A DNA stretch of 64,000 bases from a virus. Its lineage: Duplodnaviria; Caudoviricetes. This document shows, in pieces, positions 28,701-58,147 of this stretch. The notes beneath the pieces were generated by a model. That model searched no databases. It saw nothing but the letters and a program-made list of their open reading frames with translations, and was not told the DNA's origin. The first letter of the stretch is position 1. Each line of letters opens with the position of its first letter. Position numbers and translations under genes: made by a program. The DNA lies in the IMG/VR virus record IMGVR_UViG_3300017716_001697, positions 288,001 to 352,000 of that record. The stretch is one strand, 5' to 3'.

Positions 28701-29712
28701 CGTTTGCACCAGAGATAACATCAAATATATTTCGTTTCGAGTTTTGTATGCTGTTGTATATAATATTCTCGCCAGCCAATGCCGGTACCTTGAGCCAATT
28801 ATTAATAACCGAACCATTTTGATCAGTTTCTTGCACATAAACATCGTACTGGTTAATATTCTGCAAATCAATAGGGTATACACGATTAGGAACAGGAAAC
28901 TCAAAATTCGTATCTAAGTTTATTAAATTGCCTTGTTTAAAGTACAAGAAGAAACCTGTGTTTGCCGAGCCAACGCCTAAGCTATCGTTTCGATATATAA
29001 AGTTAAATGCATTTTCGGGATTAGGATTTCTTTCAAAGATTGTTTGGCCGGAAATGAAGTCTGGGTTGCATACATCAATTGGGTATTTTTGTCCATTTAT
29101 AGATATAGCCAGCGGGTATGTAACTGCTTGACGCAATACGTTGCTTAATTGGTATAAATCCGTAGGAATACTGCCTATGTTGCCGCTCTTTGTGGGGCGG
29201 CCAAAAGGGTTAAGTGTGTTGAACGCTGCATTACATATCTGCACAAATTGATCGAACCAATCTGGATTGTTTGGATCATTCCAGAATATAGTCGAATCCG
29301 ATATGTCAACACCGTTGGCATCGACTAACGGTTGGTTAGTCTGTATAGCTGATATTTTGAATAGTCCACTTGCAGGGATATTTCTACGAGGTACATAGTT
29401 AACCATCTGCGCAAGGCGGATAATACTTTCCCTACGTTCAGCAGTATCAATAAAATTTTCTCTACTATTTAGGTCTGTCCTAAATGCAAGACTTGTGCCC
29501 AGATAGGCAATTAATTCTACAATTGCAATAAATTCCGAACTTTCAATGTAATCATTGAAATCTTCCGGGTAATACGACTGTATGTAATTTATTAATGCCT
29601 GCTTTAAGGTAGGAAAATCATATGCGGTATAATCTATAAACGAATATGCTTTAAATACTTTCTTATAATCTTCCGCGGCGAAAAGATTTGACTGACGGAT
29701 CGATTCTGACAT
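25747..29712 (-). CDS. gp6: baseplate wedge protein, T4 gp6-like (extended)
   Basis: DFPTLKQALINY, IVELIAY, SRENFIDTAERRESIIRLA..NYVPRR; ETNEQIRLRAP...QSRMVNGSDY. Confidence 0.8.
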   Translation of the reverse strand: MSESIRQSNLFAAEDYKKVFKAYSFIDYTAYDFPTLKQALINYIQSYYPEDFNDYIESSEFIAIVELIAYLGTSLAFRTDLNSRENFIDTAERRESIIRLAQMVNYVPRRNIPASGLFKISAIQTNQPLVDANGVDISDSTIFWNDPNNPDWFDQFVQICNAAFNTLNPFGRPTKSGNIGSIPTDLYQLSNVLRQAVTYPLAISINGQKYPIDVCNPDFISGQTIFERNPNPENAFNFIYRNDSLGVGSANTGFFLYFKQGNLINLDTNFEFPVPNRVYPIDLQNINQYDVYVQETDQNGSVINNWLKVPALAGENIIYNSIQNSKRNIFDVISGANDSISIRFADGNFGNVPTGLFRTWVRISANQALVIRPDSAQGMQITIPYIGADQQQYTLGIVFNLEQTISNAAPSETNEQIRLRAPEVFSTQSRMVNGSDYNVLPLIYGNQIAKIQAIDRTYSGQSRYIDINDPTGFHRDLIIFGQDGALYRDNQNVLEEVVRDSSNEGNINTILMNSIKEMLRDPRVSAFYYDEYISQFENVVRVNSTPSKPTGYSILDLNNPAQSQLYWKTSPAKFKNDTGYFANSTVSNAAAAILVNSFDTQNEPNGIYQPWGFINNGAVLEFETSADIKSVSVNTVIQNGLPLIVNSSNPYANVGPVELGLEINNNAHATKVYPTFRSELTTVEISEVLGRLADGISFWLFYDVLQDEWHTSTETTPGISDQSAQALKYAPVMMDGSIPEIYSNWAEYPNSGLLYVNIASNNELATTTYDLTARGRIYIFESYRDVRFYWEPNQIVVDSATGQALQDTIEIMPFVNTNNLVDNNEPVIPPPPIKPFIDTPVNFNVTGVFIQDDGYQDPAKIKVSLVDVNNDGIPDDPNGFDRIVSPTDRIVFEYYDNEVSGYQSTRPWIAKWGLGLEGYTGDMYVYFPVDSTDVETLYSAPYIANMNLWTLYTTSAPLPHYAEGFMDFILSPDFIRTTYAPTLKYVYMDETDLMFVDSLAQLEFQSTTVAPVTIANQLTAFFNYDTTTYPWLVGTAAVLDRSAIVTTFFNSKSYLISSTEPGFGVYYTFVYENTANTTPVTGFPTGKIVVSTPDKYRYDKNGKVFTQNTSIPAIEQLPFYFKWSHYAAIDQRIDPSPSNIIDMIAITNGYYTDIINWKNNNGTKYTMPVKPTTEDLRIQFQDLDQYKMVSDSMIWNSGEFKVLFGQQAEPELQAIFKVVKAPSSSVSDNEIKTRVVQAVDIYFDIRNWDFGEKFFYTELAAFIHQQLSTLISSVVIVPSNATSQFGNLFEIVASPNQLFMSTATVNNVAIVSNLTDQNMRV

Positions 29713-30185: not shown

Positions 30186-31259
30186 CTATCCGTATCGATG
30201 TAGGCCGGAACTATAGTTGTTTCTATACATAGTCATTACCTTAGTTGTAGCACTAGCTGGTCTGTTACCTGCCCTGTTGAAGCTTAAATGATACCATGCA
30301 AGTCCTGTTGTTGAACTGTGCTCGAATATAAATTGATCATACGGGATATTGTCCTTTACCCACAGTGCATTATTCCAGTACATTTCATAGGTCCATCCGG
30401 AAAACTGTATGTCTATTGCCTGTCCAGCTACATGCTGGCTTATACCTGATTTGGTTGTTGACTCGTTTCGTATACCCGAATTTACCCGCATAGTACCAAA
30501 TTTTGCATACATAGGTTCAGCTATGTTTAGTGCCACTGCCTGTAGATTACAGAAACGTGTCTGCATGCTGAATCCTGCAACATCGCCTGATGTGAGAGGA
30601 TGTGGCCAATATGCACCTGTGGAAAAATCTTCTAACTTAAAATGTGGACTTATCGAAACACCGTAATTGGTGCCGTCCCATATCATACACGTTGTCGGCC
30701 ACCCATTTCCACCCGGTGGCGGTGTTAGCTCTGTTACCTCGGCGGCCGGTACAGTAGGTGGTGGCAATGATGTTTGAACTGGTGGCTTTGTGTTAGGTGT
30801 GTTAGGTGGCTGGGAGCCTTTTGTGCCGGTTGTGTTGTTTCCGTTGGCAATGTTTTCTTCATATTCGTCGTATGTAGGGTCGCCACCACCACCGCTTACC
30901 CCGTTCATTAAATTCATTGCAGCACCGAAGGGGCTTCCTGCAGGTGTGCAACCACCACCACCTCCACCGCCGCCGCCACCAGATCTAAATCCGGGCATTG
31001 TGCTGTTAGATTTAGGTAAGCTATCCCCGGGGTTTGTGATACTGACTACACCGGGTGGCAAATTGCTTGCTGCATAAGACGGTGCGATTCCCCCACCCGG
31101 TAATATGCCTGTAGCGCCGATTGGCACGCTGCTCATTGATGTCAGGACTACCGGGCTGACTGGTATACTGTTTAGGTTAGGTCGAGCATTATCAGCAGGG
31201 TTAGTACTGATGAAACTGAAGTTTGCGCCCGTAAGTGGTGTACCTATTTGTGTTGCCAT
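30186..31259 (-). CDS. peptidase M15A-family endopeptidase with low-complexity N-terminus
   Basis: SGIRN, SQHVAGQAIDI (H, D Zn ligands), DQFIFEH, WYHLSF; Pro/Gly/Thr-rich N-terminal half. Confidence 0.8.
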   Translation of the reverse strand: MATQIGTPLTGANFSFISTNPADNARPNLNSIPVSPVVLTSMSSVPIGATGILPGGGIAPSYAASNLPPGVVSITNPGDSLPKSNSTMPGFRSGGGGGGGGGGCTPAGSPFGAAMNLMNGVSGGGGDPTYDEYEENIANGNNTTGTKGSQPPNTPNTKPPVQTSLPPPTVPAAEVTELTPPPGGNGWPTTCMIWDGTNYGVSISPHFKLEDFSTGAYWPHPLTSGDVAGFSMQTRFCNLQAVALNIAEPMYAKFGTMRVNSGIRNESTTKSGISQHVAGQAIDIQFSGWTYEMYWNNALWVKDNIPYDQFIFEHSSTTGLAWYHLSFNRAGNRPASATTKVMTMYRNNYSSGLHRYG

Positions 31260-33742
31260 TATGCCTCCGGTGGGAATTTATCATTGCATCCGTTAGGATC
31301 AATGTTTTGAACAATCATAGCGATAATATTTGGCCCACGGCGCCCAACTTGTGTATACCATATCGAGTCTTGCAAATCTCTACCAGCTTGGTCAAAATTC
31401 TTTATCTTCATAGCAGATATAAATCTCACAAATGTCTGTAATTTACTCTTACCTAGATTGAACACTAAATCTACTAGCGCACGCTTTCTTATATCGGACA
31501 GATCACTCCATATGCTACCGAAGATGTCCTTGGCCCCAGACACTGCCTCAGCCACATCAGCACTATACCATGCATCGATCTGCGATTCCGCAATGGCGGT
31601 GCCGACAGGGAAACTGCTACGCTCAGTCGGTTTAATAAGATGGCCGATGCCACCTGTCGGGTTTCCTAAGGAATCAAGGTATACTCTTGATTTCTTTCCT
31701 TCGTGTATAGTTAGCTGACATTTCAATGCTGCCATATTTAAATCTTTTGGCGAATTGTCCGTAACAATCGGGTCGTCGGGAGTCGAGACAGTGGTGCTTC
31801 CAGTGCCGCCACACGGTGTTAACGGTGCGTTAGGGTGCATCTTATTATAGTCGCTTATCATGTAGTTGGTTATTGCGGTCTGCCCACTTGTACAACCGTA
31901 GCCGAAATTTGCTATACGTGCCCAGTAATCACCCGAGCCCGATGTGTTCGACTGTGGGAATGCTGCAAGGGTATTTGGCTTAACCGGTTGCGGTATAGGG
32001 CAAGGTCCAGTGCCGTGATTTACTAGCCAAGCCCACCATTCATCCCCCTTAGGACCATTAGCATTCCACCAACCACTTACTGCTGATAATATCTGATCAC
32101 ATGTTTGTGGTGTCGAACTGCTAGCAGTTGTGGTATTATTCACGTATGATTCGCTAAAATTTTCATGTTCGGGGCAAGGCTCGTATGTAGGAAATTTCGA
32201 CAATGTCGTCTTGAATTTCTGAGAATTACGTACAAATTTTGATTCAGGATCTTTCCACGTAGCTAATATGTTAGTTTTCTCAATAACAGGTTTAACTGTT
32301 GCACCACCTCCACCACTTGCCGAAAGTGCAGATTGTGTCGGTATAGCCGGCAACGATAAAGGCACACCTGTTGGTAAATTTGCTAATAATTGGCCGGCTG
32401 AGCAAGTAGCCACGCCGCCTGCACCCGTTAACGATAATAAAGACGCGGACTCGATTCTAACTCCGCCACCACCTTTTAAGTCAACAGATCCACCGGATGA
32501 AATCCTAACACCGGAACCACCTAACATACTGTTATCGCCACCTGCTGCCGAACTTATCGATCCTCCAGCACCGAGACTTATATTTCCACCTGCTGTTAAG
32601 TTTGCATTGCCGCCAGCAGATGAATGCCAATTTGAAACTGCTTGGATAACAACGTCACCACCGTGACCTTTTCCCTGGCCTACATATTTAAACAGTGGCA
32701 GGTCTTTTACTTTCTTAGGGACATTGTTAACATCGTATGTAAATTCTGTCTTATCAATTTTCGTGTCTTGTGCAGCCTTGATGTAGACATTCTGTCCAGC
32801 TTCGATATTTACATTTCTGTCGGCTCTGATATTAAAATCATATTGCGCACGCATGGACACATTCTGTGCTCCGAATATATCTATATTACCCTTGTAATCC
32901 ATCTGTACCCACGCGGTACCATCGCGATTAATTAGATAGATAAAACCAGTAGTTTCGTTAATCTTAATTTGTGCACCGGATTTTGTTGCGAGTTGAACGT
33001 ATTCACTATTTTCACCGTCATCCATAATAAACGACGATCCGCCTTTACGTCGAACTTGATCTGGCTCAACATTCTTACTAATGGCGGGCCCGGGTGTCAG
33101 TATGCCATATACATGGCTCGGTGCTTCTCGCCTAGCACTGGTGTCTGTAACACCACGAAACCTATCCTTAATGAGTCCTTGATTTCCTAGGCCCTTAAAC
33201 TTTGTTGCCTCGTATGGTTTTGCTGTGTTATCGGGGTGTGTAACTTTCGTATCGTTCTTGTTGTATTCGGCAACTGGGACAAATTTCTTAGGATACTGAT
33301 AGTTGTTTACATTACCTGCCATCCCCGGGACCATGTTGTTCATAAATTGGTTATATAGACAACCAATAAATACCCCACGCGACGGGTCACCGTTAATAAA
33401 GACAACCAGCACCTGATTATTAATATCGGGCGGAATCATCCACATACCATACGATGTCTGTGTACCTTCGAAGATCCGTGTATTGTTGGTATCTGTGGCG
33501 TCAATATTAGTTGCACCAGCAAACGGCGATGAATAATTTACTATAACCCACCCGTTTTCATCATCGGGTGTTGACCCGAATTCAGGTATCCATACCTGTA
33601 AACGACCGTTTAAATTTATATCAGAATTTTTCTTAACAAATCCCAGATATACACCGGTAAGGACGGGTACGCGACCCATCGGCTGTAATGAAGAATTTGT
33701 ATTTGTTTTGGATGACCTACGGCCTGCGTCTGTATAACTCAT
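31259..33742 (-). CDS. gp5: baseplate hub / spike gp5-like with C-terminal T4-type (GH24) lysozyme
   Basis: OB-fold GRLQVWIPE...GMWMIPPDINNQVLVVFINGDPSRG; beta-helix-like middle; HEGKKSRVYLDSLGNPTGGIGHLI lysozyme motif. Confidence 0.8.
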   Translation of the reverse strand: MSYTDAGRRSSKTNTNSSLQPMGRVPVLTGVYLGFVKKNSDINLNGRLQVWIPEFGSTPDDENGWVIVNYSSPFAGATNIDATDTNNTRIFEGTQTSYGMWMIPPDINNQVLVVFINGDPSRGVFIGCLYNQFMNNMVPGMAGNVNNYQYPKKFVPVAEYNKNDTKVTHPDNTAKPYEATKFKGLGNQGLIKDRFRGVTDTSARREAPSHVYGILTPGPAISKNVEPDQVRRKGGSSFIMDDGENSEYVQLATKSGAQIKINETTGFIYLINRDGTAWVQMDYKGNIDIFGAQNVSMRAQYDFNIRADRNVNIEAGQNVYIKAAQDTKIDKTEFTYDVNNVPKKVKDLPLFKYVGQGKGHGGDVVIQAVSNWHSSAGGNANLTAGGNISLGAGGSISSAAGGDNSMLGGSGVRISSGGSVDLKGGGGVRIESASLLSLTGAGGVATCSAGQLLANLPTGVPLSLPAIPTQSALSASGGGGATVKPVIEKTNILATWKDPESKFVRNSQKFKTTLSKFPTYEPCPEHENFSESYVNNTTTASSSTPQTCDQILSAVSGWWNANGPKGDEWWAWLVNHGTGPCPIPQPVKPNTLAAFPQSNTSGSGDYWARIANFGYGCTSGQTAITNYMISDYNKMHPNAPLTPCGGTGSTTVSTPDDPIVTDNSPKDLNMAALKCQLTIHEGKKSRVYLDSLGNPTGGIGHLIKPTERSSFPVGTAIAESQIDAWYSADVAEAVSGAKDIFGSIWSDLSDIRKRALVDLVFNLGKSKLQTFVRFISAMKIKNFDQAGRDLQDSIWYTQVGRRGPNIIAMIVQNIDPNGCNDKFPPEA

Positions 33743-36303
33743 GCTTCGTCACTCTCTAAATGTGGCGGTATATTAGAGGAGGCACCTAATCCTGAATTTA
33801 ATGTGTTAATAATGTATTCTTGTGTATTAACATATGCTACACCGTCTGCACCTATTCGTGTTATTGCTATCCTGCTAGGTGTTTTAAGTGACGTAGATGG
33901 CACAGATATAGGCACTCCTTCGACAATAGCAATATTAGGAGTAGCATCTGCCTTATCTAGTTCTCCTAAGAAATCTACAAGATTAATTGCCGGATCTAAT
34001 AGGCAGCTTAATTCCTGCGTAAATTTACCCATTTCGAACGTATTAGAAATTGTTGCAATTTTATACACACCGCTGAATGTTTCTACTTCGTTGTAGACTG
34101 TATCACTATCAGCAATTATGCCGTCATTATCAAATAATCTAGGAGTCCTAAAACGTATCACTATAAAATTATCACTAGAATGTATGTTGACTGATTTTTT
34201 GCTAGTGTTATCTTTAATATCATTAATTGCTTCTAATTTATCCATCAGTGACCTATATTTAAGGACCTTGCTAGTCGAATCTACACCACGAGGGAAAAGC
34301 CAATATGGGTCACCTTTGATAGTGAGTTTTACAGCAGCCATTGCATTATCGACCTGAGTTGTATACAGTGCTGTAGCGAATATACTAGATACTCGCGAGC
34401 GTGCTGCCATTTTCGATGGATCGATCCCGAATGTTACAGCAGCCTCTTGAATACCTTCAGAAAAGGCTACGGGGTGCAGTTTGCTTGCACTAAGGGATAG
34501 TGCTGCTTCGTGTGCAGCCTTAGTAAGTTCGTCATTTGTGTTTATGTCTGATAAGAAGGTTGTTGTGCCGATAACATTGCCATGACTATTTGTTAAATTA
34601 ACGGGTGCCCCTATCAGTCGTGCATACCGCCTTGCATCGTCGATCTTATCTTTCTTTGTTTTCGCTACATATGCCCTGCGATCTTCTGCCCTGGCATTAT
34701 TTAACAAATCTATATATTTTTGTACTATAGACGGATCCAAACTAGTTGCCTCACTTATTGCCGCTTGCGCATATTCTATCTTCCTAAGAACCGATGAGTC
34801 GTTTGGCGAGTTATGTATGAATGCTATTGTATCTTTAACTAGTTTCTTTACACGTTGTTCCTGTGATAATGCATCACGCCTGACTGCTATACCGGGTGTT
34901 GATATGAACGAATCATAATACGCGCCACCAAATCGCGGCTTAACTGATTGAAATGCAAAATTCATATCGAGGTCAAATTTAATTATTTGGTCATTAAGGC
35001 CGGTGAATATATAGTTATATTTTTTCTTCATTATCTTCTTACGAACGTACTCGCCCATTCGTAATTTAGATGCGGTGATGTCTTTAGAGGTCTGTCCGGT
35101 TTGGGCGGCAGTCACATCTAACGCACCGATGTCGTACTGTACTATAAAGATAGTAATGTCCACAGCAGGTTGTTGTCGTAATGTATCGTATGCAACTGGG
35201 CGCGTCTCGGTAACAATTCTCCAGAGTTTCTTCATCTGATCTGATACAGCAGTAATTGGCTTAGGGGTTGAATCTGGCGTGTCAGATTGTTGCATAGTCA
35301 CTTGCACACGAGATGTGTTAATGAGAAGACTATCGACTATCTTATCGATACCGGTTCCTGCATTATATTGCGCTGTCTTTTTACCGTAGTTGACATCTTT
35401 ACTATATTCACTGCTAAATTTAGTAGATATGTTGTCACCTGGATCCGAAATATCAATTACAGCAAGGGCAGGGTCCACAACAATTGTGTATGAGTCTGGA
35501 ATTTCGTAGTTTTCAATTAATTTATCATACTGATCAACATTTAATTTATCCTCTAATTGTTGCATGGCGGCGCCGAACGTGGAAAGTCCGTCTAATGATA
35601 CTTTTTGTTGCAATACATAATATAAATCTGTCTGCGCCTTCTCGTTATACATAATTCCATTAAATTTATACCGGGTACCTACGTGACTCACATGTGCCTC
35701 TACTGTAGTCACCTGCACATCCCATAACCATGTTGTACCTTCCATCCCGGGCGGAGTACCGGTTTCGTTTGTTTCGGACGTAGACGGACTTCTTCCTTTG
35801 AAGTTAAGTTGTAAGAAAAACGGTGTTACTTTCCAATTGCCCAGACCCAGGCCCACGGCCTGGTAAAACATCTTATCTATGAGACCAGCACCAGATGGCT
35901 CAATCAACTCAAATGTGAATGTAGTTGATGTGCCGGTCCCATTGCGGGCATTAGGACCAGCGACTGATTCTATTCTAACCTTATCTATTGTCATATCAGT
36001 CACACCGCTTTCTGCTATAATGACTTGGTTTTTAGTCTCTAATATAGCACCACTGTGTGCATTCTCTAAAGACGTCATGAAGAATTTCCAGTGGTAGGTG
36101 AACTGATCATAATTGTCTAAGATATTAGGTATAAACTCAAATTTGTAATCTCTGCCGTCGGCGACGGACTGATTAGGGTCATGAACAAACGAATCTCGAC
36201 GATTTAAGTCGGCGCGACCATCTGCGTTAATCGGTAATGAATTATTGTTTCTTAATAATTTATTCCATTCTGCTTCATATTCTGGGGTGTTCGGTGATGG
36301 CAT
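33739..36303 (-). CDS. putative baseplate hub protein
   Basis: About 854 aa (start MPSPN at 36303); NILDNYDQFTYH, IEPSG, LTIKGDPYWL and SGVYKI motifs of hub-type proteins; lies between the gp53-like and gp5-like genes. Confidence 0.5.
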   Translation of the reverse strand: MPSPNTPEYEAEWNKLLRNNNSLPINADGRADLNRRDSFVHDPNQSVADGRDYKFEFIPNILDNYDQFTYHWKFFMTSLENAHSGAILETKNQVIIAESGVTDMTIDKVRIESVAGPNARNGTGTSTTFTFELIEPSGAGLIDKMFYQAVGLGLGNWKVTPFFLQLNFKGRSPSTSETNETGTPPGMEGTTWLWDVQVTTVEAHVSHVGTRYKFNGIMYNEKAQTDLYYVLQQKVSLDGLSTFGAAMQQLEDKLNVDQYDKLIENYEIPDSYTIVVDPALAVIDISDPGDNISTKFSSEYSKDVNYGKKTAQYNAGTGIDKIVDSLLINTSRVQVTMQQSDTPDSTPKPITAVSDQMKKLWRIVTETRPVAYDTLRQQPAVDITIFIVQYDIGALDVTAAQTGQTSKDITASKLRMGEYVRKKIMKKKYNYIFTGLNDQIIKFDLDMNFAFQSVKPRFGGAYYDSFISTPGIAVRRDALSQEQRVKKLVKDTIAFIHNSPNDSSVLRKIEYAQAAISEATSLDPSIVQKYIDLLNNARAEDRRAYVAKTKKDKIDDARRYARLIGAPVNLTNSHGNVIGTTTFLSDINTNDELTKAAHEAALSLSASKLHPVAFSEGIQEAAVTFGIDPSKMAARSRVSSIFATALYTTQVDNAMAAVKLTIKGDPYWLFPRGVDSTSKVLKYRSLMDKLEAINDIKDNTSKKSVNIHSSDNFIVIRFRTPRLFDNDGIIADSDTVYNEVETFSGVYKIATISNTFEMGKFTQELSCLLDPAINLVDFLGELDKADATPNIAIVEGVPISVPSTSLKTPSRIAITRIGADGVAYVNTQEYIINTLNSGLGASSNIPPHLESDEA

Positions 36304-44824: not shown

Positions 44825-45064
44825 TTACATATACTCTTTTCCCGAAGGGTTCTGTTCTTTAAGTCGTCTATTGATAACCTTTGTAAGCAGTTCTCTATCC
44901 TTGAAACTCATACCCCACGCTGAATTGAACTCTACACCACCTTTCATGAAATAGCAGATTTCTGCTATTTGCTCTCTCAGTATTTCTGATTCTTTATTGT
45001 ACGAGTTTATAAGGTCACCTAGTTGCTCTGGTGGCAGAAAAATTAAGGACCTTATGAAAAATTT
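44825..45064 (-). CDS. -1 frame extension of the gp26-like chaperone (gp51/GT-like C-terminal part), missed by the ORF track
   Basis: Open -1 frame FIRSLIFLPPEQLGDL...CYFMKGGVEFNSAWGMSFKDRELL...KEYM*; no start codon at its 5' end; begins at slippery A-AAT-TTT. Confidence 0.7.
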   Translation of the reverse strand, partial: KFFIRSLIFLPPEQLGDLINSYNKESEILREQIAEICYFMKGGVEFNSAWGMSFKDRELLTKVINRRLKEQNPSGKEYM

Positions 45065-45897
45065 ACTGGATTAAAGTCAACTTCGTTGTCCCACTCGTGC
45101 CCGCACGATGTGCATTTTGCAGTAAATGTTTTCTTAATTCCGATAGCGTTAATAGTCTGTACTAGATCAGAAATTTTATCAACATTCTTCTTATCGATAT
45201 TGAATAAGAATTCTTTAATAAATTCTTTATTGGTAACATTAACATCATTGCTTTCGTCGACTACCTTAACAACAGAATCTACCATAAGTTCAAATGTTAG
45301 TACGGCCAATTTTTTAAACGAAGAACCGTAGATTTTAGCTCGTTCTTCGTCACTAAGGGTATCGCTGCTAGCGGCTCTTGTAAGCTTATTCTGTTCAAAT
45401 TGTGTGTGCAAACCTTTTAGCAGTTCGGGGAACGCATATGGTTTGACAAACACACTAACACCGGAATCCAAGTTTACTACATATTCTTGTTCAAGAAATT
45501 CCATGTTGTCGAGCGCATATTGCAAATCTAATTTAAATGTATTTTCGGCCGTGCATTTTGGACATTTAATTGATGTTTCTAGACTGTCATCATACGTAGC
45601 ATAGCGGATTGCGGTAATTAAGGCATCAATATCATTTGTTAACAGCATTCTTGGATTCTTGACTGCCGGTACGCAGCTAACAAGAACTTCGATAAGTGAT
45701 TCTCCATTTAATAATCCGTCGGGATTCTTAAGCGACAGCTCATCCTTACCTGTCATTGGGTAAACCCCTACTTCCCCTTTATCTGTAAAATTTACAATAT
45801 CAGCATTGTAATATGATGTTCCGCTAGGTAACTTCATGTACAGCTTGAATTGCCTGAAGTACTGTTTTAGCGGGTTATGTTGTGTAGTCTGTTCCAT
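45052..45897 (-). CDS. gp26: baseplate hub assembly chaperone, T4 gp26-like
   Basis: NPLKQYFRQ..LYMKLPSG, VYPMTGKDE, CPKC and CTSC Zn pairs, ends FNPVNF; divergent from the tape-measure-like gene. Confidence 0.65.
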   Translation of the reverse strand: MEQTTQHNPLKQYFRQFKLYMKLPSGTSYYNADIVNFTDKGEVGVYPMTGKDELSLKNPDGLLNGESLIEVLVSCVPAVKNPRMLLTNDIDALITAIRYATYDDSLETSIKCPKCTAENTFKLDLQYALDNMEFLEQEYVVNLDSGVSVFVKPYAFPELLKGLHTQFEQNKLTRAASSDTLSDEERAKIYGSSFKKLAVLTFELMVDSVVKVVDESNDVNVTNKEFIKEFLFNIDKKNVDKISDLVQTINAIGIKKTFTAKCTSCGHEWDNEVDFNPVNFS

Positions 45898-45921: not shown

Positions 45922-45955
45922 GATAAATAGCTCGAAAGCTTTTCATTTATTTATC
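45922..45955. promoter_or_regulatory. pair of oppositely oriented GATAAATA late promoters
   Basis: GATAAATA at 45922-45929 (+) and 45948-45955 (-). Confidence 0.6.
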
Positions 45956-45977: not shown

Positions 45978-48215
45978 ATGGTTGATGCAGTTAACATTGT
46001 AGGAATTGACGGCGAGGCACTTGCTTCGGCTCTTAGATCGTCGCCGGCGTGGGCTACAGAAAGGACCCTTAACGAAATAAAGGGATTACTTGCAGGTAGT
46101 GGCAGCGCAAGTAAACAGAAGGATGTATTTAGTTTAGCCCAACGATCTGTCTTGAAAGATTTATTCAGCGAATTAGAAAAGGAATCTAAAGCAGCTAAGA
46201 CGCGAGCCGAGCGTGAGAAAAAAGTAGCAGAAGGACGCGCCGACCGTGAATTATTATTTGGCAAAGGGCTTACTACCTTAAACCAAAAAATACTATTTGT
46301 TTCCGCAGCCCTGAATAAAATGGGTGATGCTATACAGGATACATTTAAGAGTAATATCAACTCATTTGCAACATTGCAAAGCAGTGGCCTAGACCTAATG
46401 AGAGGCATGGATAATGCCTCAAACGGGTTTCAGTCATTGCAACAACTTTCGTCCCTTACTGGAATTAGATTTACTGAATTATCATCTACTATGATAAAAT
46501 ATAATTCCGCTATAAATGCGTTTGGCGTTGGTAAATTTGCTAAAACGTTAGGTAAATCAACTGATGCATTAACTAAATTTGGATTCTCTTCAAAGGAAAC
46601 CGGTGACTTATTAGGTGCATATCTTGAAATACAACGCGGCCACACAGACATGCAAAATAAGACAACCGACGAAACATCAGCAGAATTAGTGATATTTGGT
46701 AAAAGGATTAATAATTTATCTTTAGCAACAGGTATGGCAAGAGGTGCTATACTTGCTAATATGGATGCGATGAGTAAGAACACAAGTATGGCGATTTTAG
46801 CAGCCCAACAAGGCTCTAAATCAGCAGAGGCTACTACCGGATTCCTTGCCTCGCTAAAAGATCAAGATTTAGCAAACACCTTGGCAAAAATGATGACTGA
46901 TCCTGTCAAAGCATTAAACGCTTCATTTGCAGCCCTTCAGAAGGGTGGTATGGGCGACCTTGCCGCCGAGCTTGAAACATTATTGGCGGGTATGGAAGGT
47001 CTCAGCGAATCGGAAAAAGCTAAAGCCTTGGCAAATTTTGCCGCTGCCCATGATCAAGATCTTAGATCTAAATTACTTGACGCTAATTTTCAGTCCCAGG
47101 CGCCCGGAATGGAAGCAATAGGTGCGGCCAATGTTAAACTTATAACAAGCCTACAAGCAGCTGGACGCCAAATAAACAAGTTTGCAGAAGAATCAAACGA
47201 TCCTGCTGCTATTGCTCGGGCTGATTTTGCAAAGTCATGGGAAAATTTGATGTCGCAGATGCAATCCACATTTTCTTTGCCGATAAAAGCATTGGAATTG
47301 CTTACATGGGGTATCAACGGTATAGCAGAATCCATAAAATGGTTTACCGGGTTATTTAGTTCCGAAACAAAGGGGTGGATAGGTGCAATAGGTGTTGTTG
47401 TAGGCTCTCTTGCAGGCTTGGTATTAGGATTTAAAGGTGTAACCCTTGTATTGAGTCTATTTAAATCTTCCATTCCGCTATTACTTAGGGGATCTATAGG
47501 AATGATCGGTACTGCTATAGCAGCGCCATTTAGAATATTTAGTACTGGCCTCACTACAGCATCAGCAGCACTGGGGCGACTAAGTGCATCCGCCAGTGCC
47601 GCTAGTGCTGCAACAGGCGCAGCTGGAGTAGCCGGTAAATTTGGCGGCCTCGGTAAGATATTGGGATTTCTTTCCGCAGCGGCGGTGGTAGCTAATATAG
47701 GCGATGCTGCTGGCGGCGCAATGGGCGTAGGTAAAGATAAAGATGGCAATGATATAGAACTTAATAAGGCACAAGATGATGCTAATTGGGAAATGATGTC
47801 AATGCCACAGAAGATGATGTCAGGATTGCTGAGAGGTATTGAGGGTGTGGGTGGTATTATTGGTATGGATAATATTGCTAGATCCGCCGCCAATGATCGC
47901 ATTAAGGCAGAAACTGCCGGACTAAAGACTAAGAAATCTACTGAAATTTCTGTACCTAAAGATCCTGCACCATCGACTATTGAAAGTCCGTCTGCAAAAC
48001 CTGCAAAGGTTACAGAAAAATCTGCAGAAACTGCACCTGATGTATCTGATCCAAAGACGTCAACTCCTGCCGGTTTAGACACTAACGCCGGCAGCAATGA
48101 CATAAATAACTTACTAACATTCCAAAGCTCGGTTCTGCAACAAATTCTATTGAGTACACAGGATGTTGTGTCGATTAACCGAGATATTCTTAAATTTACA
48201 AGAGCTAACGCATGA
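45978..48215 (+). CDS. tape-measure-like protein
   Basis: 745 aa, Ala/Gly/Leu/Ser-rich helical composition with hydrophobic segments; adjacent to the frameshifted chaperone. Confidence 0.6.
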   Translation: MVDAVNIVGIDGEALASALRSSPAWATERTLNEIKGLLAGSGSASKQKDVFSLAQRSVLKDLFSELEKESKAAKTRAEREKKVAEGRADRELLFGKGLTTLNQKILFVSAALNKMGDAIQDTFKSNINSFATLQSSGLDLMRGMDNASNGFQSLQQLSSLTGIRFTELSSTMIKYNSAINAFGVGKFAKTLGKSTDALTKFGFSSKETGDLLGAYLEIQRGHTDMQNKTTDETSAELVIFGKRINNLSLATGMARGAILANMDAMSKNTSMAILAAQQGSKSAEATTGFLASLKDQDLANTLAKMMTDPVKALNASFAALQKGGMGDLAAELETLLAGMEGLSESEKAKALANFAAAHDQDLRSKLLDANFQSQAPGMEAIGAANVKLITSLQAAGRQINKFAEESNDPAAIARADFAKSWENLMSQMQSTFSLPIKALELLTWGINGIAESIKWFTGLFSSETKGWIGAIGVVVGSLAGLVLGFKGVTLVLSLFKSSIPLLLRGSIGMIGTAIAAPFRIFSTGLTTASAALGRLSASASAASAATGAAGVAGKFGGLGKILGFLSAAAVVANIGDAAGGAMGVGKDKDGNDIELNKAQDDANWEMMSMPQKMMSGLLRGIEGVGGIIGMDNIARSAANDRIKAETAGLKTKKSTEISVPKDPAPSTIESPSAKPAKVTEKSAETAPDVSDPKTSTPAGLDTNAGSNDINNLLTFQSSVLQQILLSTQDVVSINRDILKFTRANA

Positions 48216-49924
48216 CATGGAAAAAATTCTTCAAGCCCGTTAATTCGGTCTTACCCGCTGCTCAACGAACAGTTGACAGTACATCTGCTTATGCATCTAC
48301 GGCAAAATATAGTAATTGGTTGCCGGAGGTATATGCCGGTCCACCAGATAGATTACAGAGATATGCTGTATATGATCAGATGAACTATGATCATGAAATT
48401 AGCGCAGCATTGGACACTATTGCAGACTTTGCAACAGATCCAGACGAAGTAACAAAACTTCCACTTGTAATTGAGTACAATGACGAACCTACACCATCAG
48501 AAATTCAGATTCTAGAAAAATCTCTTAATCAGTGGGTTAGGATGAACAAGTTATCTAGACGCCTATGGCGCATGTTTAGGTCAGTATTGGTTTACGGTGA
48601 TCAATTCTTTATTCGCGACCCGGAGACGTTCGAATTATACTGGATTGATCCAGCTAAGGTAGAAAAGGTTATTGTAAACGAAAGCGAAGGTAAGAAGATT
48701 GAAAGCTACTTTGTTAAGGACATTGATCTTAACATGAAGAATCTTGTTGCTACCAATCAGTTAAACAAAGCATCTAATGCCGCTATGGGCGGCAACAGTA
48801 TTGTATTTTCACCACCAATGGCAGGAAATCTAAACTATGTATCTGGTGGCTTTGGCAGTGCAGGCAGCGCCAATTACAAAGATGGTGGTGCAACAGCAGT
48901 GGATGCCGAACATATTGTGCAATTATCGTTAACTGACGGTATGAATGCTGCATGGCCCTTTGGCCTAAGTATTTTAGAGCAAATTTACAAGGTTTACAAG
49001 CAAAAAGAACTACTAGAAGACGCTATTCTTATATATCGTGTACACCGCGCACCAGAGCGTCGTGTATTCTTTATTGACGTAGGTACAATGCCACCTAATA
49101 AGGCGTCACAATACTTAGAGCGCATCCGCTACGAAGTTCAACAGAAGCGTATTCCTAGCCGTACAGGCGGCGGAGCCAACGTTGTTGATTCTACATACAA
49201 CCCTATGTCTATATTAGAAGATTATTTCTTTGCAGTAACTTCTGAGGGTCGCGGCTCTAAAGTCGAAGTATTACCGGGTGGCGAAAACCTAGGTGATATT
49301 GATGACTTGCGTTATTTCAATAACAAGATGCTTCGTGCATTAGGTGTACCTAGTTCTTACTTACCAACAGGCCCAGAAGATGGTACGGCAGCAGTAACAG
49401 ACGGCAAAGTAGGCACGGCATTTATTCAGGAATTTAGGTTTGCTAAGGTTGTAACACGTTATCAGCAACAAATCATTGAACCACTCGATGATGAGTTTAA
49501 GTTATTCATTAAGCATCGTGGTATAACAATCGACAATAGTTTGTTCCAATTGAAATTCACACCTGCGCAATCGTTCTCTGAATATCGTCAGCTTGAATTA
49601 GACGCAGCAAGAATTAATACATTTACTGCGCTTACTGATATTTCGTTTGTATCCAAGAGATTCATTCTTAAGACATATTTAGGATGGACAGAAGAGCAAT
49701 TAGCTGAGAATGAGCGTATGTGGAAAGAAGAACGTAGTCGTCTTACTAAGACATTTGCTCCAGAGGCTAGCGGTGGTGGCAGTGCTACATCGGGACTATC
49801 TGATGTAGGTATTACCAGTTCTGGAATTGACGATATGGCACCTGATGCTGAAGAAGCAGGTGCACCAGCTGATACAGGTGCAGCACCAGTTTCTGATACA
49901 GAAGTAGATAGTTTCGGTAGTTAA
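48212..49924 (+). CDS. gp20: portal protein, T4 gp20-like
   Basis: EISAALD, LEDAILIYRVHRAPERRVFFIDVGTMP, EDYFF..GRGSKVEVLPGG. Confidence 0.92.
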   Translation: MTWKKFFKPVNSVLPAAQRTVDSTSAYASTAKYSNWLPEVYAGPPDRLQRYAVYDQMNYDHEISAALDTIADFATDPDEVTKLPLVIEYNDEPTPSEIQILEKSLNQWVRMNKLSRRLWRMFRSVLVYGDQFFIRDPETFELYWIDPAKVEKVIVNESEGKKIESYFVKDIDLNMKNLVATNQLNKASNAAMGGNSIVFSPPMAGNLNYVSGGFGSAGSANYKDGGATAVDAEHIVQLSLTDGMNAAWPFGLSILEQIYKVYKQKELLEDAILIYRVHRAPERRVFFIDVGTMPPNKASQYLERIRYEVQQKRIPSRTGGGANVVDSTYNPMSILEDYFFAVTSEGRGSKVEVLPGGENLGDIDDLRYFNNKMLRALGVPSSYLPTGPEDGTAAVTDGKVGTAFIQEFRFAKVVTRYQQQIIEPLDDEFKLFIKHRGITIDNSLFQLKFTPAQSFSEYRQLELDAARINTFTALTDISFVSKRFILKTYLGWTEEQLAENERMWKEERSRLTKTFAPEASGGGSATSGLSDVGITSSGIDDMAPDAEEAGAPADTGAAPVSDTEVDSFGS

Positions 49925-49927
49925 TAA

Positions 49928-49935
49928 GATAAATA
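49928..49935 (+). promoter_or_regulatory. putative late promoter GATAAATA
   Basis: Immediately after the portal stop, upstream of the ATT-start ORF. Confidence 0.6.
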
Positions 49936-49966
49936 ATTTATACATTTAGTATTAGAGGCACCCAAA

Positions 49967-50194
49967 ATTAACGCACGCGAATTACTTACAGAATTCTATG
50001 ATCCTGCTGATGATCAACTCGGTAAGGCTGAGCTCGATGATACACGCCGTCCACGATTAACTATGATTCATTTACAGAAACTTAGGAAGTCTCGCGACGT
50101 CGAAAAATACGAAACCGCCCAACATACTAATTTCTTACCAGATATGTATGGTGTATCTGCAGCACCTGCAGATAACGGAATGGGCGGTCTATAA
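49967..50194 (+). CDS. 75-aa head-module protein with ATT start (T4 gp67 position), missed by the ORF track
   Basis: (M)NARELLTEFYDPADDQLGKAELDDTRRPRLTMIHLQKLRKSRDVEKY...GGL*; AGAGG RBS 8 nt before ATT; no ATG/GTG/TTG between in-frame stop 49934 and ATT. Confidence 0.7.
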   Translation: MNARELLTEFYDPADDQLGKAELDDTRRPRLTMIHLQKLRKSRDVEKYETAQHTNFLPDMYGVSAAPADNGMGGL

Positions 50195-50365
50195 AGCAGT
50201 CGTTTATCACGTGTCATGCGTGACTAAATAACTCTATTAGCTTAACAATCAAAAGTGGCGTCTTTTATAGCCATTTCCACCTACATTCTCTCGGTCTATG
50301 TTAAATATCAAGAATACCATTATTTGTGGTTAATTTGAATTTAACAAATCAAGGAGAGATTAGGC

Positions 50366-53178: not shown

Positions 53179-54351
53179 ATGGCAACAAAGCTATTTGAAT
53201 CAAACTGGGGCGCTACAAAAGAAGCCCTTTTAGAAGGCCTTACAGGTACTCGCCGTCAGTCCATGGATGTCGTGTTTGAAAACACACGTCGTCACTTGTC
53301 TGAATCGGCAACTGCCGGTGCCACACAAGCGGGTAATATCGCTGTACTTAACAAGGTAATGTTGCCGTTAATCCGTCGTGTCATGCCGACAGTTATCGCT
53401 AACGAAATCATGGGCGTTCAGCCAATGACTGGCCCTGTTGGTCAAATCCACACATTGCGCGTTCGTTATGCGAACACAGCAGCTGGTGTTACAGCCGGTA
53501 CAGAAGCACTTGGTCCATTCGAAATTGCTAAGGCATATTCGGGTAACGAAGTACAAGCTGATCCAGCAGCAGCATCTACAGCACGTATGGAAGGTGTTCC
53601 AGGTAACAAGTTAAGCATCCAAATCTTGAAAGAGACAGTAGAAGCTAAGACACGTAAGTTATCTGCACGTTGGACATTTGAAGCAGCTCAAGATGCTAAT
53701 GCTATTCATGGTATTGACATCGAAGCCGAAATCATGCAAGCACTTGCACAAGAAATCACAGTTGAAATCGACCAGGAAATGATCTACCGTTTAGGTAGCT
53801 TGGTTCCAGTTGCTCCAACAACATTCAATCAAGCCGCTGTATCTGGTACAGCAACTTACGTTGGTGACGAAATGGCTGCTCTTGCAGTTATGATTAACCA
53901 ACAAGCTAACTTGATCGCTTCCCGCACACGTCGTGGTGCAGCTAACTGGGCAGTTGTTTCGCCAACAGCGTTGACAATTCTTCAGTCTGCTACAACATCT
54001 TCGTTTGCACGTACTACAGAAGGTACATTCGAAGCACCTACAAACACAAAGTTTGTTGGTACATTGAACAGCACAATGCGTGTTTATGTTAACCAGTACG
54101 CTGGCGATGGCGAAGCTATTTTGTTAGGTTATAAAGGCCCAACAGAAACAGACGCAGCAGCTTACTACTGCCCATACATTCCATTGATGAGCGTTGGTCC
54201 AGTTATGGATCCACAGACTTTCGAGCCTGTAGTTTCGTTCATGACACGTTATGGTTACCTTGAATTGACTAACACAGCAAACAGCTTCGGTAACGCAGCT
54301 GACTACTTGTCTAAGGTCGGTATCAACAGCGCAACATTGAAGTTCTATTGA
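53179..54351 (+). CDS. gp23: major capsid protein, T4 gp23-like
   Basis: LIRRVMPTVIANEIMGVQPMTGPVGQIHTLR, KTRKLSARWTFEAAQD, YCPYIPL, FMTRYG. Confidence 0.95.
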   Translation: MATKLFESNWGATKEALLEGLTGTRRQSMDVVFENTRRHLSESATAGATQAGNIAVLNKVMLPLIRRVMPTVIANEIMGVQPMTGPVGQIHTLRVRYANTAAGVTAGTEALGPFEIAKAYSGNEVQADPAAASTARMEGVPGNKLSIQILKETVEAKTRKLSARWTFEAAQDANAIHGIDIEAEIMQALAQEITVEIDQEMIYRLGSLVPVAPTTFNQAAVSGTATYVGDEMAALAVMINQQANLIASRTRRGAANWAVVSPTALTILQSATTSSFARTTEGTFEAPTNTKFVGTLNSTMRVYVNQYAGDGEAILLGYKGPTETDAAAYYCPYIPLMSVGPVMDPQTFEPVVSFMTRYGYLELTNTANSFGNAADYLSKVGINSATLKFY

Positions 54352-55410: not shown

Positions 55411-56856
55411 TTATTCGTATATTGAGATTGGGAGTCCATTAGGTACCTGAATTATGTTATCTATTCTCCAATACCCCGGCGAATATACACCGTAATATGT
55501 ATATGACCAATTTGTTCCATCGAACGTATACTGAGAACTATTTGAGTTATTTACTACATAATTTAAACCTGTTGCAGTTCGTGAATCAAAAATGACTACC
55601 CATGTGCTTCCATTAAACTCTATAATGTCATTTGGGTAGGCAACAATTGTTACGCCCCACGGACTACCGACAACGCCTGGCGGTATAGCAGGTTCTTCGC
55701 CTGCGCTGTCTGCAGATGTTAACAAATACCTTTGCCCTGGTGCTGCTAGTGGCAATCCACTACCAGGTGTTATTTCGGTAGGATCAATAATCGAATCAAT
55801 CGGCATGATAGTTGTAGGTGGCAACGTGTCGATGTCTGGTGTGAAAATAAGCACGTTTTGACGCATAGGGTCTTGTGCGATTCCGCCGATAACATCAGAA
55901 TCGCTGACATCTATGTTAGGGTTTAATTTTAGCCGAATTTTGGTGATATTAGGGTCTATCTGCCCGTATATTTGTATGAGGTTCTGCCAGCTTTGTATAG
56001 GTTGAACATTGCCTGCTTGGTTCAGCAATGTGATTTCGTCAACTGCACCAACTCTTGCTACGGATACCTTATAATTTCCTTCAGTAGTAATGAGTTGTGA
56101 CGGTATACCAGAGAAACATGTTTTAAAAATATCATAATCGCCGTCTAATGTTGCTTCTAGATTTTGCACATCTTCAACTTCATAGATGTTAGTAACAATT
56201 TCAGCAATGATTCCGCTCTTCTTAACTTTAGCAGGTGGATTGATCCAAATAGGTACTTTAAATTTCCATGTCATTACATCACGTACTGTATCACCACTTT
56301 GCGGAATTGCGCGATTAGACCATGTAAATTCTTCCATCCATACTTCAAAGATACTTGTCCAATCTAATAGATTACTATTCTGCTGTAATTGCACTGACGG
56401 ATTGAATATGGAATTAATCTGTTCCATAACCTGTAATTTGTTTGTTGTGTTTGTTGTCCAGCAATCTAATTTGAAATACATATCATACGGCACTGGCATA
56501 TAACGATCAACATCATATCTTATCCCCGGCCCGTCACCGTATGTGTTTGTATCTTTATCGAATTCTCTTTCGACAGTCGACACCTTACCTACAAACTGGG
56601 AATCTTGTCTCCTGTTTGGTGCCATGCGTATGCTATCAATGTACACACTGAACATAGGAGAAGGCATAACAGTGTTGTCACTAGCACCTTTAATTAGTTG
56701 TGCAACCATGTATGATGGGTCACCGTACAGCAATGGTATGCGAGTAATAGAATACAAACCATTGGCATCTGGGCCATTTCTAACTTTTATGTCAGAAAAA
56801 ATTCGCATAAATTGCAGCAGGTAACGCCTGTGCTGAGAATCGTAAAAAAAATCTAT
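55411..56856 (-). CDS. gp15: tail terminator / sheath stabiliser, T4 gp15-like, with ATA start
   Basis: RIPLLYGD, MPSPMFS, MPVPYD, KLQVMEQI..IFNPS motifs; frame extends 16 codons above the track ATG as (M)DFFYDSQHRRYLLQF to ATA at 56856. Confidence 0.65.
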   Translation of the reverse strand: MDFFYDSQHRRYLLQFMRIFSDIKVRNGPDANGLYSITRIPLLYGDPSYMVAQLIKGASDNTVMPSPMFSVYIDSIRMAPNRRQDSQFVGKVSTVEREFDKDTNTYGDGPGIRYDVDRYMPVPYDMYFKLDCWTTNTTNKLQVMEQINSIFNPSVQLQQNSNLLDWTSIFEVWMEEFTWSNRAIPQSGDTVRDVMTWKFKVPIWINPPAKVKKSGIIAEIVTNIYEVEDVQNLEATLDGDYDIFKTCFSGIPSQLITTEGNYKVSVARVGAVDEITLLNQAGNVQPIQSWQNLIQIYGQIDPNITKIRLKLNPNIDVSDSDVIGGIAQDPMRQNVLIFTPDIDTLPPTTIMPIDSIIDPTEITPGSGLPLAAPGQRYLLTSADSAGEEPAIPPGVVGSPWGVTIVAYPNDIIEFNGSTWVVIFDSRTATGLNYVVNNSNSSQYTFDGTNWSYTYYGVYSPGYWRIDNIIQVPNGLPISIYE

Positions 56857-56873
56857 TTTGGGTGCCTCTTTAT

Positions 56874-58094
56874 TTAATTAGGTTTTGTCTTAGCTCGTTG
56901 CTCGGCTATATTAGCTCTAATATCTTCGGCAGCAGTAACATCAATTTTTCGTTGTGCATACAGATCAACTTTCTGTTTCACTACTTGAGATACAGCTTGT
57001 TTCTCAGGTATCACTGTGCCGTTAGGTAACAATGTATCTCTGTTGTTATCAATAAATGTATCTAGTACACGGTTATAAGCAGTCCAACTTTTCAAAACAT
57101 CTACCTCTATAAGTCTGAAACAATTACCTTGTTTTTGGAATAATCTCTCTGGGTAATAATCTAATCGTAGATAATATTGCCCGTCTTGCATATTAGGCGG
57201 GAATGTTATTCCTGCACCAACTAACGGCCCACCATTTGGTGGTGCACCATCGCCGCTGTAGAAGTTACTGCCAATAACAGGGTAGTTTGTTTCAGGATCA
57301 ATGTAGATATACAAATTTGCACTCTCAAAGAATTTCGGATCAAAGAACGCATACTTTTCAGCTTCGGCTACGTTTTGATCTGTAATAGATATAATTTTAC
57401 AAAATAGATCCAAAGATGCCTTAATGTCTGGGTTACAACCTAGACCGGGTTCGCCACCATTAGTTGCAATCCCGGTAAATCCTTCAGGCATAATACCTAT
57501 GCCTTGTCCGACACCGCCTGCCGTATCGCCTGTCGCAGCTTGATCAACAATTTCTTTGAATTCTGGCGAAGCTGTCATTAATTTAGCTCTTACAAGCCAA
57601 ATATGTGGAAACCATTTCTGTCCATATCCAGCAGCCGCGTATAATGCGTCGTGAACTACGTAATACCTATTTATACCTACAGCATTATCAAAGATAGGGA
57701 CATCTCTCATACTAGGGAATTCTAAGACATCACCTGCTATTAATTTTCGTCCTATAGCATCAACCATATCGTTATAATGAAACTGTATGCGAATCATGTC
57801 TGAGCTAAGGAATATACCGAACTGGGATAAATCGTAGTTTACGTCCTGTGGGGTATGATGTCCACGCAATTCTATGACATCTGGGTTGTATTTCCTTGAT
57901 GTGTTCTCTAAGAATAGCACATCTTGTATAGATGTTAGTGATGTATCAGTGCTACCAGTCGAGTCAATTTCGGGCCCTTCATACATATGGACAAGGATGC
58001 CGTCCCCAGATATGCGGAGTGCTTCGCCGACCACTCTGTCAGTAAAATTGAAATCACTGCCTTTTTGCGGTGACCACAAACTAATTCTTGGCAT
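56874..58094 (-). CDS. neck / head-completion protein, T4 gp14-like
   Basis: LFLENTSRKY, DLSQFGIFL, GRKLIAGDVLEFP, WFPHIW motifs; next to the gp15-like gene. Confidence 0.55.
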   Translation of the reverse strand: MPRISLWSPQKGSDFNFTDRVVGEALRISGDGILVHMYEGPEIDSTGSTDTSLTSIQDVLFLENTSRKYNPDVIELRGHHTPQDVNYDLSQFGIFLSSDMIRIQFHYNDMVDAIGRKLIAGDVLEFPSMRDVPIFDNAVGINRYYVVHDALYAAAGYGQKWFPHIWLVRAKLMTASPEFKEIVDQAATGDTAGGVGQGIGIMPEGFTGIATNGGEPGLGCNPDIKASLDLFCKIISITDQNVAEAEKYAFFDPKFFESANLYIYIDPETNYPVIGSNFYSGDGAPPNGGPLVGAGITFPPNMQDGQYYLRLDYYPERLFQKQGNCFRLIEVDVLKSWTAYNRVLDTFIDNNRDTLLPNGTVIPEKQAVSQVVKQKVDLYAQRKIDVTAAEDIRANIAEQRAKTKPN

Positions 58095-58113
58095 AATTAT
58101 CCCCTTATTGCAT

Positions 58114-58147
58114 TATTTATCAATCGAATGCATTCGATTGATAAATA
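58114..58147. repeat. perfect 34-bp palindrome containing two divergent GATAAATA promoters
   Basis: TATTTATCAATCGAATG-CATTCGATTGATAAATA. Confidence 0.9.

Follow-up and report, generated by a model that had tools for sequence, protein, structure and literature searches.

Probable translation of three genes from AUU and AUA start codons behind strong SD leaders in an uncultured jumbo phage

Introduction

AUU and AUA start codons are a known but rare means of keeping a protein scarce, and infC and Staphylococcus aureus ccpN are published examples. The infC gene uses AUU or AUC across bacteria, and this start is discriminated against by IF3; in Escherichia coli, both infC (AUU/AUC) and pcnB (AUU) have an isoleucine-type start that is conserved by selection and limits expression (PMC5499595). 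In S. aureus, cvfC1 (AUU), ccpN and citZ (both AUA) combine a conserved non-canonical start with a strong SD that aids the weak codon; such AUU and AUA starts, behind strong or extended SDs, yield approximately 10% of the output of AUG (PMC13009471). Excess IF3 in E. coli inhibits initiation at non-canonical codons, on leaderless messages and at SD-less coupled sites (PMC2268962). The mRNA of lambda cI is a described case of the leaderless class (PMC9031893).

Here, we describe three genes of a phage genome that appear to belong among these systems. We consider it likely that all three are translated from near-cognate AUU or AUA starts by the initiator tRNA of the host, with a strong SD compensating for the weak codon and a low dose being set as a result. 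The likeness to infC and pcnB lies in an isoleucine-type start that is conserved by selection and would limit expression. However, infC is autoregulated by its own product, whereas the genes described here include those of virion proteins, a search for the IF3 C-domain found no phage IF3, and no feedback is evident. The pairing of a conserved non-canonical start with a strong SD recalls the S. aureus genes, where the SDs are extended and near the start; here the core is only GAGG, followed by an 8-nt G-free spacer ending in AAA. Also unlike the S. aureus cases, the homologues of the phage genes include ATG alleles, in which the SD is either weak or missing. What is particular to this system is the presence of such starts in three genes of one genome, behind a near-identical leader, and the varied start designs of sister phages.

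The phage genome and its relatives

The phage is uncultured and its source is a freshwater metagenome. The IMG/VR genome is 364,576 bp long, has direct terminal repeats and a G+C content of 41.6%; the window, meaning the whole 64,000-nt stretch analysed here, comprises bases 288001–352000. Megablast of the two loci in the window against GenBank phages found no near relative, and it was protein-level searches that gave the PA5oct, Atu_ph07 and RaK2/121Q groups. The Pseudomonas phage PA5oct is a distant relative, with approximately 45% protein identity for the small post-portal gene and the gp15-like gene described below, and by protein similarity Atu_ph07 and the RaK2/121Q group are more distant still. 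The neighbourhood of the small gene is a T4-like head module: portal, small gene, 338-aa gene, prohead protease, 373-aa gene and major head protein. On the minus strand of the window, in the tail/fibre region, there are two giant genes, an ORF of 3,839 aa (14151–25670) and then one of 1,321 aa (25747–29712).

An AUU start in the head module

The portal gene (T4 gp20-like; 48212–49924, plus strand; phrog_213, E 2.5e-106) lies directly upstream of a small gene (49967–50194, plus strand), whose 75-aa product matches the 75-position profile of phrog_13986. The initial annotation had placed the start of this gene at an ATT preceded by a leader, 8 nt from a GAGG and just below a late promoter, in a frame lacking a canonical start before codon 33. 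Re-reading of the sequence agrees on each point. Positions 49954–49969 read AGAGGCACCCAAA-ATT, with the ATT at 49967–49969; the frame is closed upstream by TAA at 49934–49936, and its first 32 codons include no ATG, GTG or TTG, codon 33 being the ATG at 50063. The leader AGAGGCACCCAAA (49954–49966, plus strand) consists of an SD, GAGG at 49955–49958, and the 8-nt G-free spacer CACCCAAA, ending in AAA. The box GATAAATA, for which a promoter role is inferred, lies 18 nt upstream of the leader at 49928–49935 (plus strand) and is conserved before the small gene in relatives.

The PA5oct homologue, gp333, starts with ATG AAA ATA AAC and is annotated 'structural protein, ESI-MS/MS', so that by homology the small-gene product is a virion-associated protein. 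Pfam gave no match for it, for the product of the third gene described below or for three neighbouring genes. Alignment of 72 IMG/VR relatives, found via the adjacent portal gene, places the start codon (ATG or ATH) level with the ATT in all relatives of at least ~50% identity, and the residues that follow it (K/R-A-K-E/D-L-L) match the I-N-A-R-E-L-L of the small gene. A Logan contig of word depth 77 from the probable source sample is identical to 49700–50300 without differences, and thus has ATT rather than ATG; this contig is not independent of the source sample, and the occurrence of the same design in many other metagenomes is the weightier reason to regard an assembly error as unlikely. 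The small gene begins 42 nt past the portal stops, behind its own promoter-like box. A read-through fusion of the two genes was considered and rejected: they share a frame, but three in-frame stops lie between them.

An AUA start in the tail module

The second gene (55411–56856, minus strand) encodes a gp15-like tail sheath stabilizer/completion protein of 481 aa and starts at ATA (56856–56854). Profile matches to phrog_11196 (E 2.5e-91, residues 1–467, from profile position 2) and to the tail sheath stabilizer family phrog_227 (E 4.8e-19) identify it as a full-length member of the T4 gp15 tail sheath stabilizer/completion family. Its first canonical start is the ATG at 56808; the 16 codons that precede it fall inside the conserved N-terminus, and the start of PA5oct gp15, ATG AAC TAT TTT TAC GAC, aligns codon for codon with ATA GAT TTT TTT TAC GAT. 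For this gene and the small gene together, the alignment of orthologues and the family profiles indicate that a canonical start is lacking and that the frames begin at AUA and AUU, in agreement with the initial annotation.

Immediately before the ATA stands the second exact copy of AGAGGCACCCAAA (56857–56869, minus strand), 4 nt past the stop of the upstream gene. The leader followed by AT had been reported from these two places only within the window, and this proved true of the whole 364,576-bp genome, where the 13-mer has two exact copies and still two when one mismatch is allowed. An antisense partner of the leader was also considered and rejected: searched for on both strands throughout the genome, the 13-mer turned up nowhere but in the two leaders.

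The upstream gene encodes a virion structural protein of 406 aa (56874–58094, minus strand). Its stop is 17 nt upstream of the ATA, and a GATAAATA box of its own stands at 58121–58114 (minus strand), so that both genes probably belong to one late operon, with the gp15-like gene as its second cistron. The two genes are in different frames, which excludes a read-through fusion. In PA5oct the gp15 homologue overlaps the upstream gene as TAATG, with no SD, and in Atu_ph07 it overlaps an upstream lysin gene, also as TAATG. At 58094–58121 (minus strand), the GATAAATA box of the 406-aa gene runs straight into a two-codon mini-ORF (ATG CAA TAA), after which come GGGG and the real ATG.

A third gene and the genome-wide search

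In the 492 likely coding frames of the genome, we looked for an in-frame ATH that follows an SD and precedes the first canonical start. This gave the small gene, the gp15-like gene and one further strong case, a gene at genome position 83647, outside the window, which encodes a 167-aa protein of phrog_11279. Its start region reads AAAGAGGCATTAAA-ATT-AAC (in shorter form AAGAGGCATTAAA-ATT), with a GAGG-type SD and a 7-nt spacer; 53 codons separate the ATT from the first canonical start, and the upstream stop lies 18 nt before the ATT. The family profile is matched from position 2, 80 relatives align from residue 1, and the PA5oct homologue starts at TTG. Weak ATT candidates at genome positions 193462, 233339, 174952 and 199995 each lie 2–8 codons upstream of a canonical start. 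The regular expression (GGAG|GAGG)-N3-6-AAA-ATH, when required to open at least 50 codons, has exactly three matches in 364 kb, namely the starts of the small gene, the gp15-like gene and the third gene.

The three genes share further properties. From the upstream stop as far as the conserved N-terminus, each of the three frames is free of ATG, GTG and TTG, and each has an SD at functional spacing (GAGG plus 8 nt at both window genes; duplex energy −5.8 kcal/mol). Compared with shuffled sequences, the start regions are poorly structured (z = +2.1, +0.75 and +1.9 for the three genes), and for two of them, the small-gene leader region included, 198 of 200 shuffles fold at least as well. In the gp15-like and phrog_11279 genes, the SD begins 4–6 nt past the upstream stop.

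Start designs among relatives

In all three genes, the AUH codon (AUU, AUC or AUA) coincides in alignment with the starts of orthologues from PA5oct, Atu_ph07 and IMG/VR and with the family profiles, and the non-AUG state has been kept in diverged relatives from many metagenomes. Alignment of orthologues, which the initial annotation had proposed as a check, reveals that the leader is coupled to an AUH codon in relatives and that the N-terminal segments are conserved. Among the IMG/VR relatives, ATT, ATC or ATA starts go with a strong SD and a spacer that lacks G and ends in AAA, and ATG starts with an SD that is weak, degraded or missing. These sequences show the position of the start, its conservation and the coupling of codon strength to SD strength.

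The small gene occurs in two main designs. In design A, GATAAATA is followed after 5–6 nt by ATG; this is seen in ~24 alleles, and a contig derived from the reads of a different sample has the same arrangement. Design B has 11–22 variable nt between GATAAATA and AAGAGG(C/T)A(C/T)(C/T/A)(C/T/A)AAA, and then ATC or ATT; counted as unique start regions, there are 11 such alleles besides that of this phage, giving 12 ATH alleles in all. Within design B, GAGGCACCCAAA is exact in five contigs, and the leader AGAGGCACCCAAA itself is also present in relatives L014, L015, L021, L025 and L052. Three alleles combine a leader with ATG, and two of these (L044 and L075) have the degraded SD AGAGAAA.

Among unique start regions of the gp15 family, ATA occurs five times and ATC three times, while the others have ATG or TTG, either behind weak SDs or overlapping the upstream stop. 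The element GAGG(C/T)A(C/T)C(C/T)AAA precedes ATA in five genomes and ATC in one, and in two genomes the order is AGGAGG, a hairpin and then ATC. The ATA codon is one transition from ATG, and it persists at 65–78% protein identity. For the third gene, the 80 relatives start at ATG (56), ATT (8), TTG (6), ATA (3) or CTG (3); the ATT, ATA and CTG alleles stand behind GGAG or GAGG, with a spacer that ends in AAA in most of the ATT and ATA alleles.

A dedicated initiation signal, as had been proposed, is not what these comparisons reveal, nor is the 13-mer a unique one: the leader varies, and relatives also pair AUH with other strong-SD leaders (GGAGAACTAAA, GAGGTAAGCAAA, AGGAGGTTTAAA and GAGGTATTTAAA). 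Common to the AUH leaders are a strong SD, a spacer almost without G, and AAA at −3 to −1. The median SD duplex energy is −6.6 kcal/mol for ATH starts (n = 25) versus −3.9 for ATG starts (n = 73; Mann–Whitney p 2e-6), and AAA at −3 to −1 is found in 21/25 ATH starts versus 5/73 ATG starts (Fisher p 5e-13); both tests are pooled over unique upstream regions and ignore shared ancestry, so that the p values are inflated by kinship and indicative only. The exact 13-mer, shared by two unlinked genes and kept where the flanking non-coding DNA has diverged, exceeds the generic need for an SD and may reflect an extra constraint or gene conversion; this counts against near-cognate initiation as a complete account, since it leaves the identity unexplained.

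On a portal tree, the ATH state of the downstream gene occupies at least eight separate positions. Since this state needs at least 8–9 changes on the tree, designs A and B are interspersed, which points to repeated switching or, more likely, to recombination of a short promoter–leader segment. The relatives L014 and L016, for instance, encode nearly the same N-terminus behind different start designs.

Two further arrangements were seen in gp15 homologues. In L010 (1440–1503) and L177, AGGAGG lies ~29 nt before the ATC start with a 6-bp hairpin between them (CGGCAG...CTGCTG and CGACAG...CTGTCG). Split ribosome-binding sites of the same kind are found in T4 genes 38 and 25, to which L010 and L177 add a non-AUG start. 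In L009 (1103–1116) and L182 (minus strand, ~1499), a canonical start (GTG or ATG) is followed by GAT and seven T, with the remainder of the gp15 homologue one base out of frame; the start frame itself runs for 22 or 8 codons before it meets a stop. The family-like M-D-F-F-Y-D would result if ribosomes slipped by −1 on U UUU UUU A, or from transcriptional slippage. Logan contigs from four runs, belonging to three studies, match the seven-T form of L009 without a gap, so for L009 it is not an assembly error; one of the four runs also contains an allele of the form GAGGTACCCAAA-ATA.

The promoter-like box and leaderless alleles

The genome holds 76 copies of GATAAATA against 27 expected from composition, and 62 of the 76 are in non-coding DNA, which makes up ~19% of the genome. 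We take the box to resemble the T4 late promoter TATAAATA; from this likeness and from its place before structural genes, GATAAATA is read here as a late promoter, which would place the AUU of the small gene below such a promoter, as first noted. Between divergent genes at 45052–45897 (minus strand) and 45978–48215 (plus strand), two GATAAATA boxes on opposite strands are contained in an imperfect palindrome (window 45922–45955), an arrangement that looks like overlapping divergent late promoters.

The distance from GATAAATA to ATG in this genome is bimodal, at 4–6 nt or 18–29 nt. In the ~24 alleles of design A it is 5–6 nt, and because the box is so close to the ATG, these SD-less alleles of the small gene are probably leaderless: if the box is a promoter, the ATG would be at or next to the 5′ end, as in lambda cI mRNA (PMC9031893). 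This likeness extends to the relatives' alleles of the small gene, not to the gene of this phage, and spacing is the evidence for it. In ~13 genes of this genome, a NATAAATA box (mostly GATAAATA) stands 4–6 nt before the ATG (for example at G000 54239, 157069, 179030 and 127713), an arrangement that hints at a group of late mRNAs without leaders.

Translation factors and tRNAs of the phage

Outside the window, the genome encodes homologues of bS21 (G000 118510–118665; 52.7 bits) and IF1 (G000 141891–142073; 58.5 bits), both above the Pfam cut-off. A search with the C-terminal domain family of IF3 (IF3_C) gave no match in the genome at E≤1. The suggestion to look for phage IF3 and IF1 genes was thus rewarded for IF1, with bS21 in addition, and not for IF3; with no match to the IF3 C-domain and no feedback loop evident, the genome gives no sign of infC-type autoregulation. 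Among four complete relatives, bS21 occurs in all four and IF1 in three (not in G005); the small gene begins with ATG in each of the four, and in two the gp15 gene does as well. Because IF1 and bS21 occur in these ATG-using relatives, the co-variation of the two factors with AUH use that was looked for in this set was not seen.

The genome also has 45 tRNA genes and a tmRNA (tag ANADTFALVA), for which coordinates are given at G000 3810–56365, 30533–30892, 33705–33780 and 53935–54026. One tRNA(CUA) is of the amber-suppressor type, and a 92-nt tRNA(UAU) has a long extra arm and a G1-U72 wobble pair. The hallmarks of an initiator were not found among the 45 phage tRNAs; in ARAGORN structures drawn in full, Ile(GAU), tRNA(UAU) and both tRNA(CAU) lack the combination of three consecutive G:C pairs at the anticodon-stem base and a 1:72 mismatch. 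The idea that the leader is read by a phage factor therefore fares poorly, since there is no initiator-like phage tRNA, the IF3_C search gave no IF3, and IF1 and bS21 are also present in relatives that use ATG.

A mechanism for initiation and its alternatives

In the favoured mechanism, the ordinary initiator tRNA of the host would read AUU or AUA and place fMet at the N-terminus. A GAGG 8 nt upstream, a G-free, C/A-rich spacer ending in AAA and an open initiation region would together make the weak codon usable; on this view the AUH codon attenuates, and the leader compensates for it as ribosome-binding site. The net effect would be a low, set rate of initiation and hence control of dose. Low output, decoding by fMet-tRNA and stoichiometry as the purpose are what we infer. 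T4 gp15 is a hexamer with six copies per virion, and by analogy a low dose fits a gp15-like protein. In the initial annotation, the proposed purpose was control of the dose or timing of low-copy assembly proteins. Dose limitation remains the most economical purpose; 'low-copy' holds for gp15 alone, through the T4 analogy, and because the phrog_11279 protein is without a known assembly role, the AUH class is not limited to low-copy assembly proteins.

Alternative readings differ in how the weak codon comes to be used. Ribosomes finishing the upstream cistron could be held by the SD and use the weak AUH of the gp15-like and phrog_11279 genes, whose upstream stops lie so near (at 17 nt from the ATA and 18 nt from the ATT, with the SD 4–6 nt past the stop). 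SD sequences enhance re-initiation (PMC2268962), and the TAATG overlaps of gp15 homologues in PA5oct and Atu_ph07 speak for the same process. However, the small gene has the same leader 42 nt past the portal stops, behind its own promoter-like box, and for this reason coupling cannot explain all three genes; as a full account, termination–reinitiation is a minority possibility. From the placement of the SD just past the upstream stop, terminating ribosomes may supply part of the initiation at the gp15-like and phrog_11279 genes, and reinitiation in that form complements near-cognate initiation by the host tRNA and does not replace it. A phage-encoded initiator-like tRNA with an Ile anticodon, decoding AUH at the P site, might be thought of given 45 phage tRNAs that include Ile(GAU) and the odd tRNA(UAU) with its G1-U72 wobble. 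It is largely refuted by the tRNA structures, from which the hallmarks are absent; moreover, AUU, AUC and AUA are interchangeable in relatives and one tRNA would not read all three, and we regard this as the least probable of the readings. Scarcely more credible is an artefact, either a sequencing error in an ATG or translation from the internal ATG of truncated genes. Gene finders restricted to ATG, GTG and TTG do call the short forms, but the contig of 77x depth has the same bases, dozens of contigs from other metagenomes share the design, and the N-terminal segments are conserved in protein and covered by family profiles, so that comparative data refute it.

A different purpose is served if AUH with a strong SD has been selected for fidelity-dependent output, the phage lowering IF3 discrimination late in infection by its own IF1 or bS21 or by titration of IF3. 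The phage does encode IF1 (58.5 bits) and bS21 (52.7 bits), and a preference of phage bS21 for late phage mRNAs has been proposed (PMC9723584, PMC7162821). Non-canonical codons, ATG near the box and thus probably leaderless, and the SD-less TAATG overlap of PA5oct also correspond to the three classes that are inhibited when IF3 is in excess in E. coli (PMC2268962). Against such an IF3-sensitive timing switch, IF1 is described as assisting, not relieving, IF3 discrimination (PMC5499595), neither IF1 nor bS21 co-varies with AUH among the four complete relatives, the IF3_C search found no IF3 homologue in the genome, and the leaderless status of the alleles is read from spacing; we think the switch unlikely. 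A broader version, which we rate slightly lower again, treats the GAGG-YAYYY-AAA-AUH, leaderless-AUG and SD-less coupled alleles as one 'initiation-fidelity regulon', all selected for IF3-sensitive translation, in a clade that would reset start-site fidelity late via IF1/bS21 or IF3 titration and so time or dose these genes. Conservation of the CACCCAAA spacer is closer than a generic spacer would call for, and if the regulon were real, this exactness would mark a contact with a modified ribosome or a phage protein. Of the sequencing runs that hold the region, none is on record as RNA.

Implications for the phage family

Translation from near-cognate starts has direct consequences for annotation. 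Standard gene callers, which accept ATG, GTG and TTG, overlook or curtail all three genes: they shorten the small protein from 75 to 43 aa, remove 16 conserved residues from gp15 and take 53 of the 167 residues from the third protein, and the same miscalling is to be expected in many related metagenomic jumbo phages. The leaders provide a defined set for asking whether phage IF1 or bS21 alters start-codon fidelity. The family as a whole is a natural experiment in start-site design, comprising strong SD with AUH, weak SD with AUG, probably leaderless AUG, SD–hairpin–AUC and a canonical start that needs a −1 slip. The several start designs that one gene can have in sister phages are an argument for stabilising selection on how fast these genes are initiated, and for more than one molecular route to that rate.
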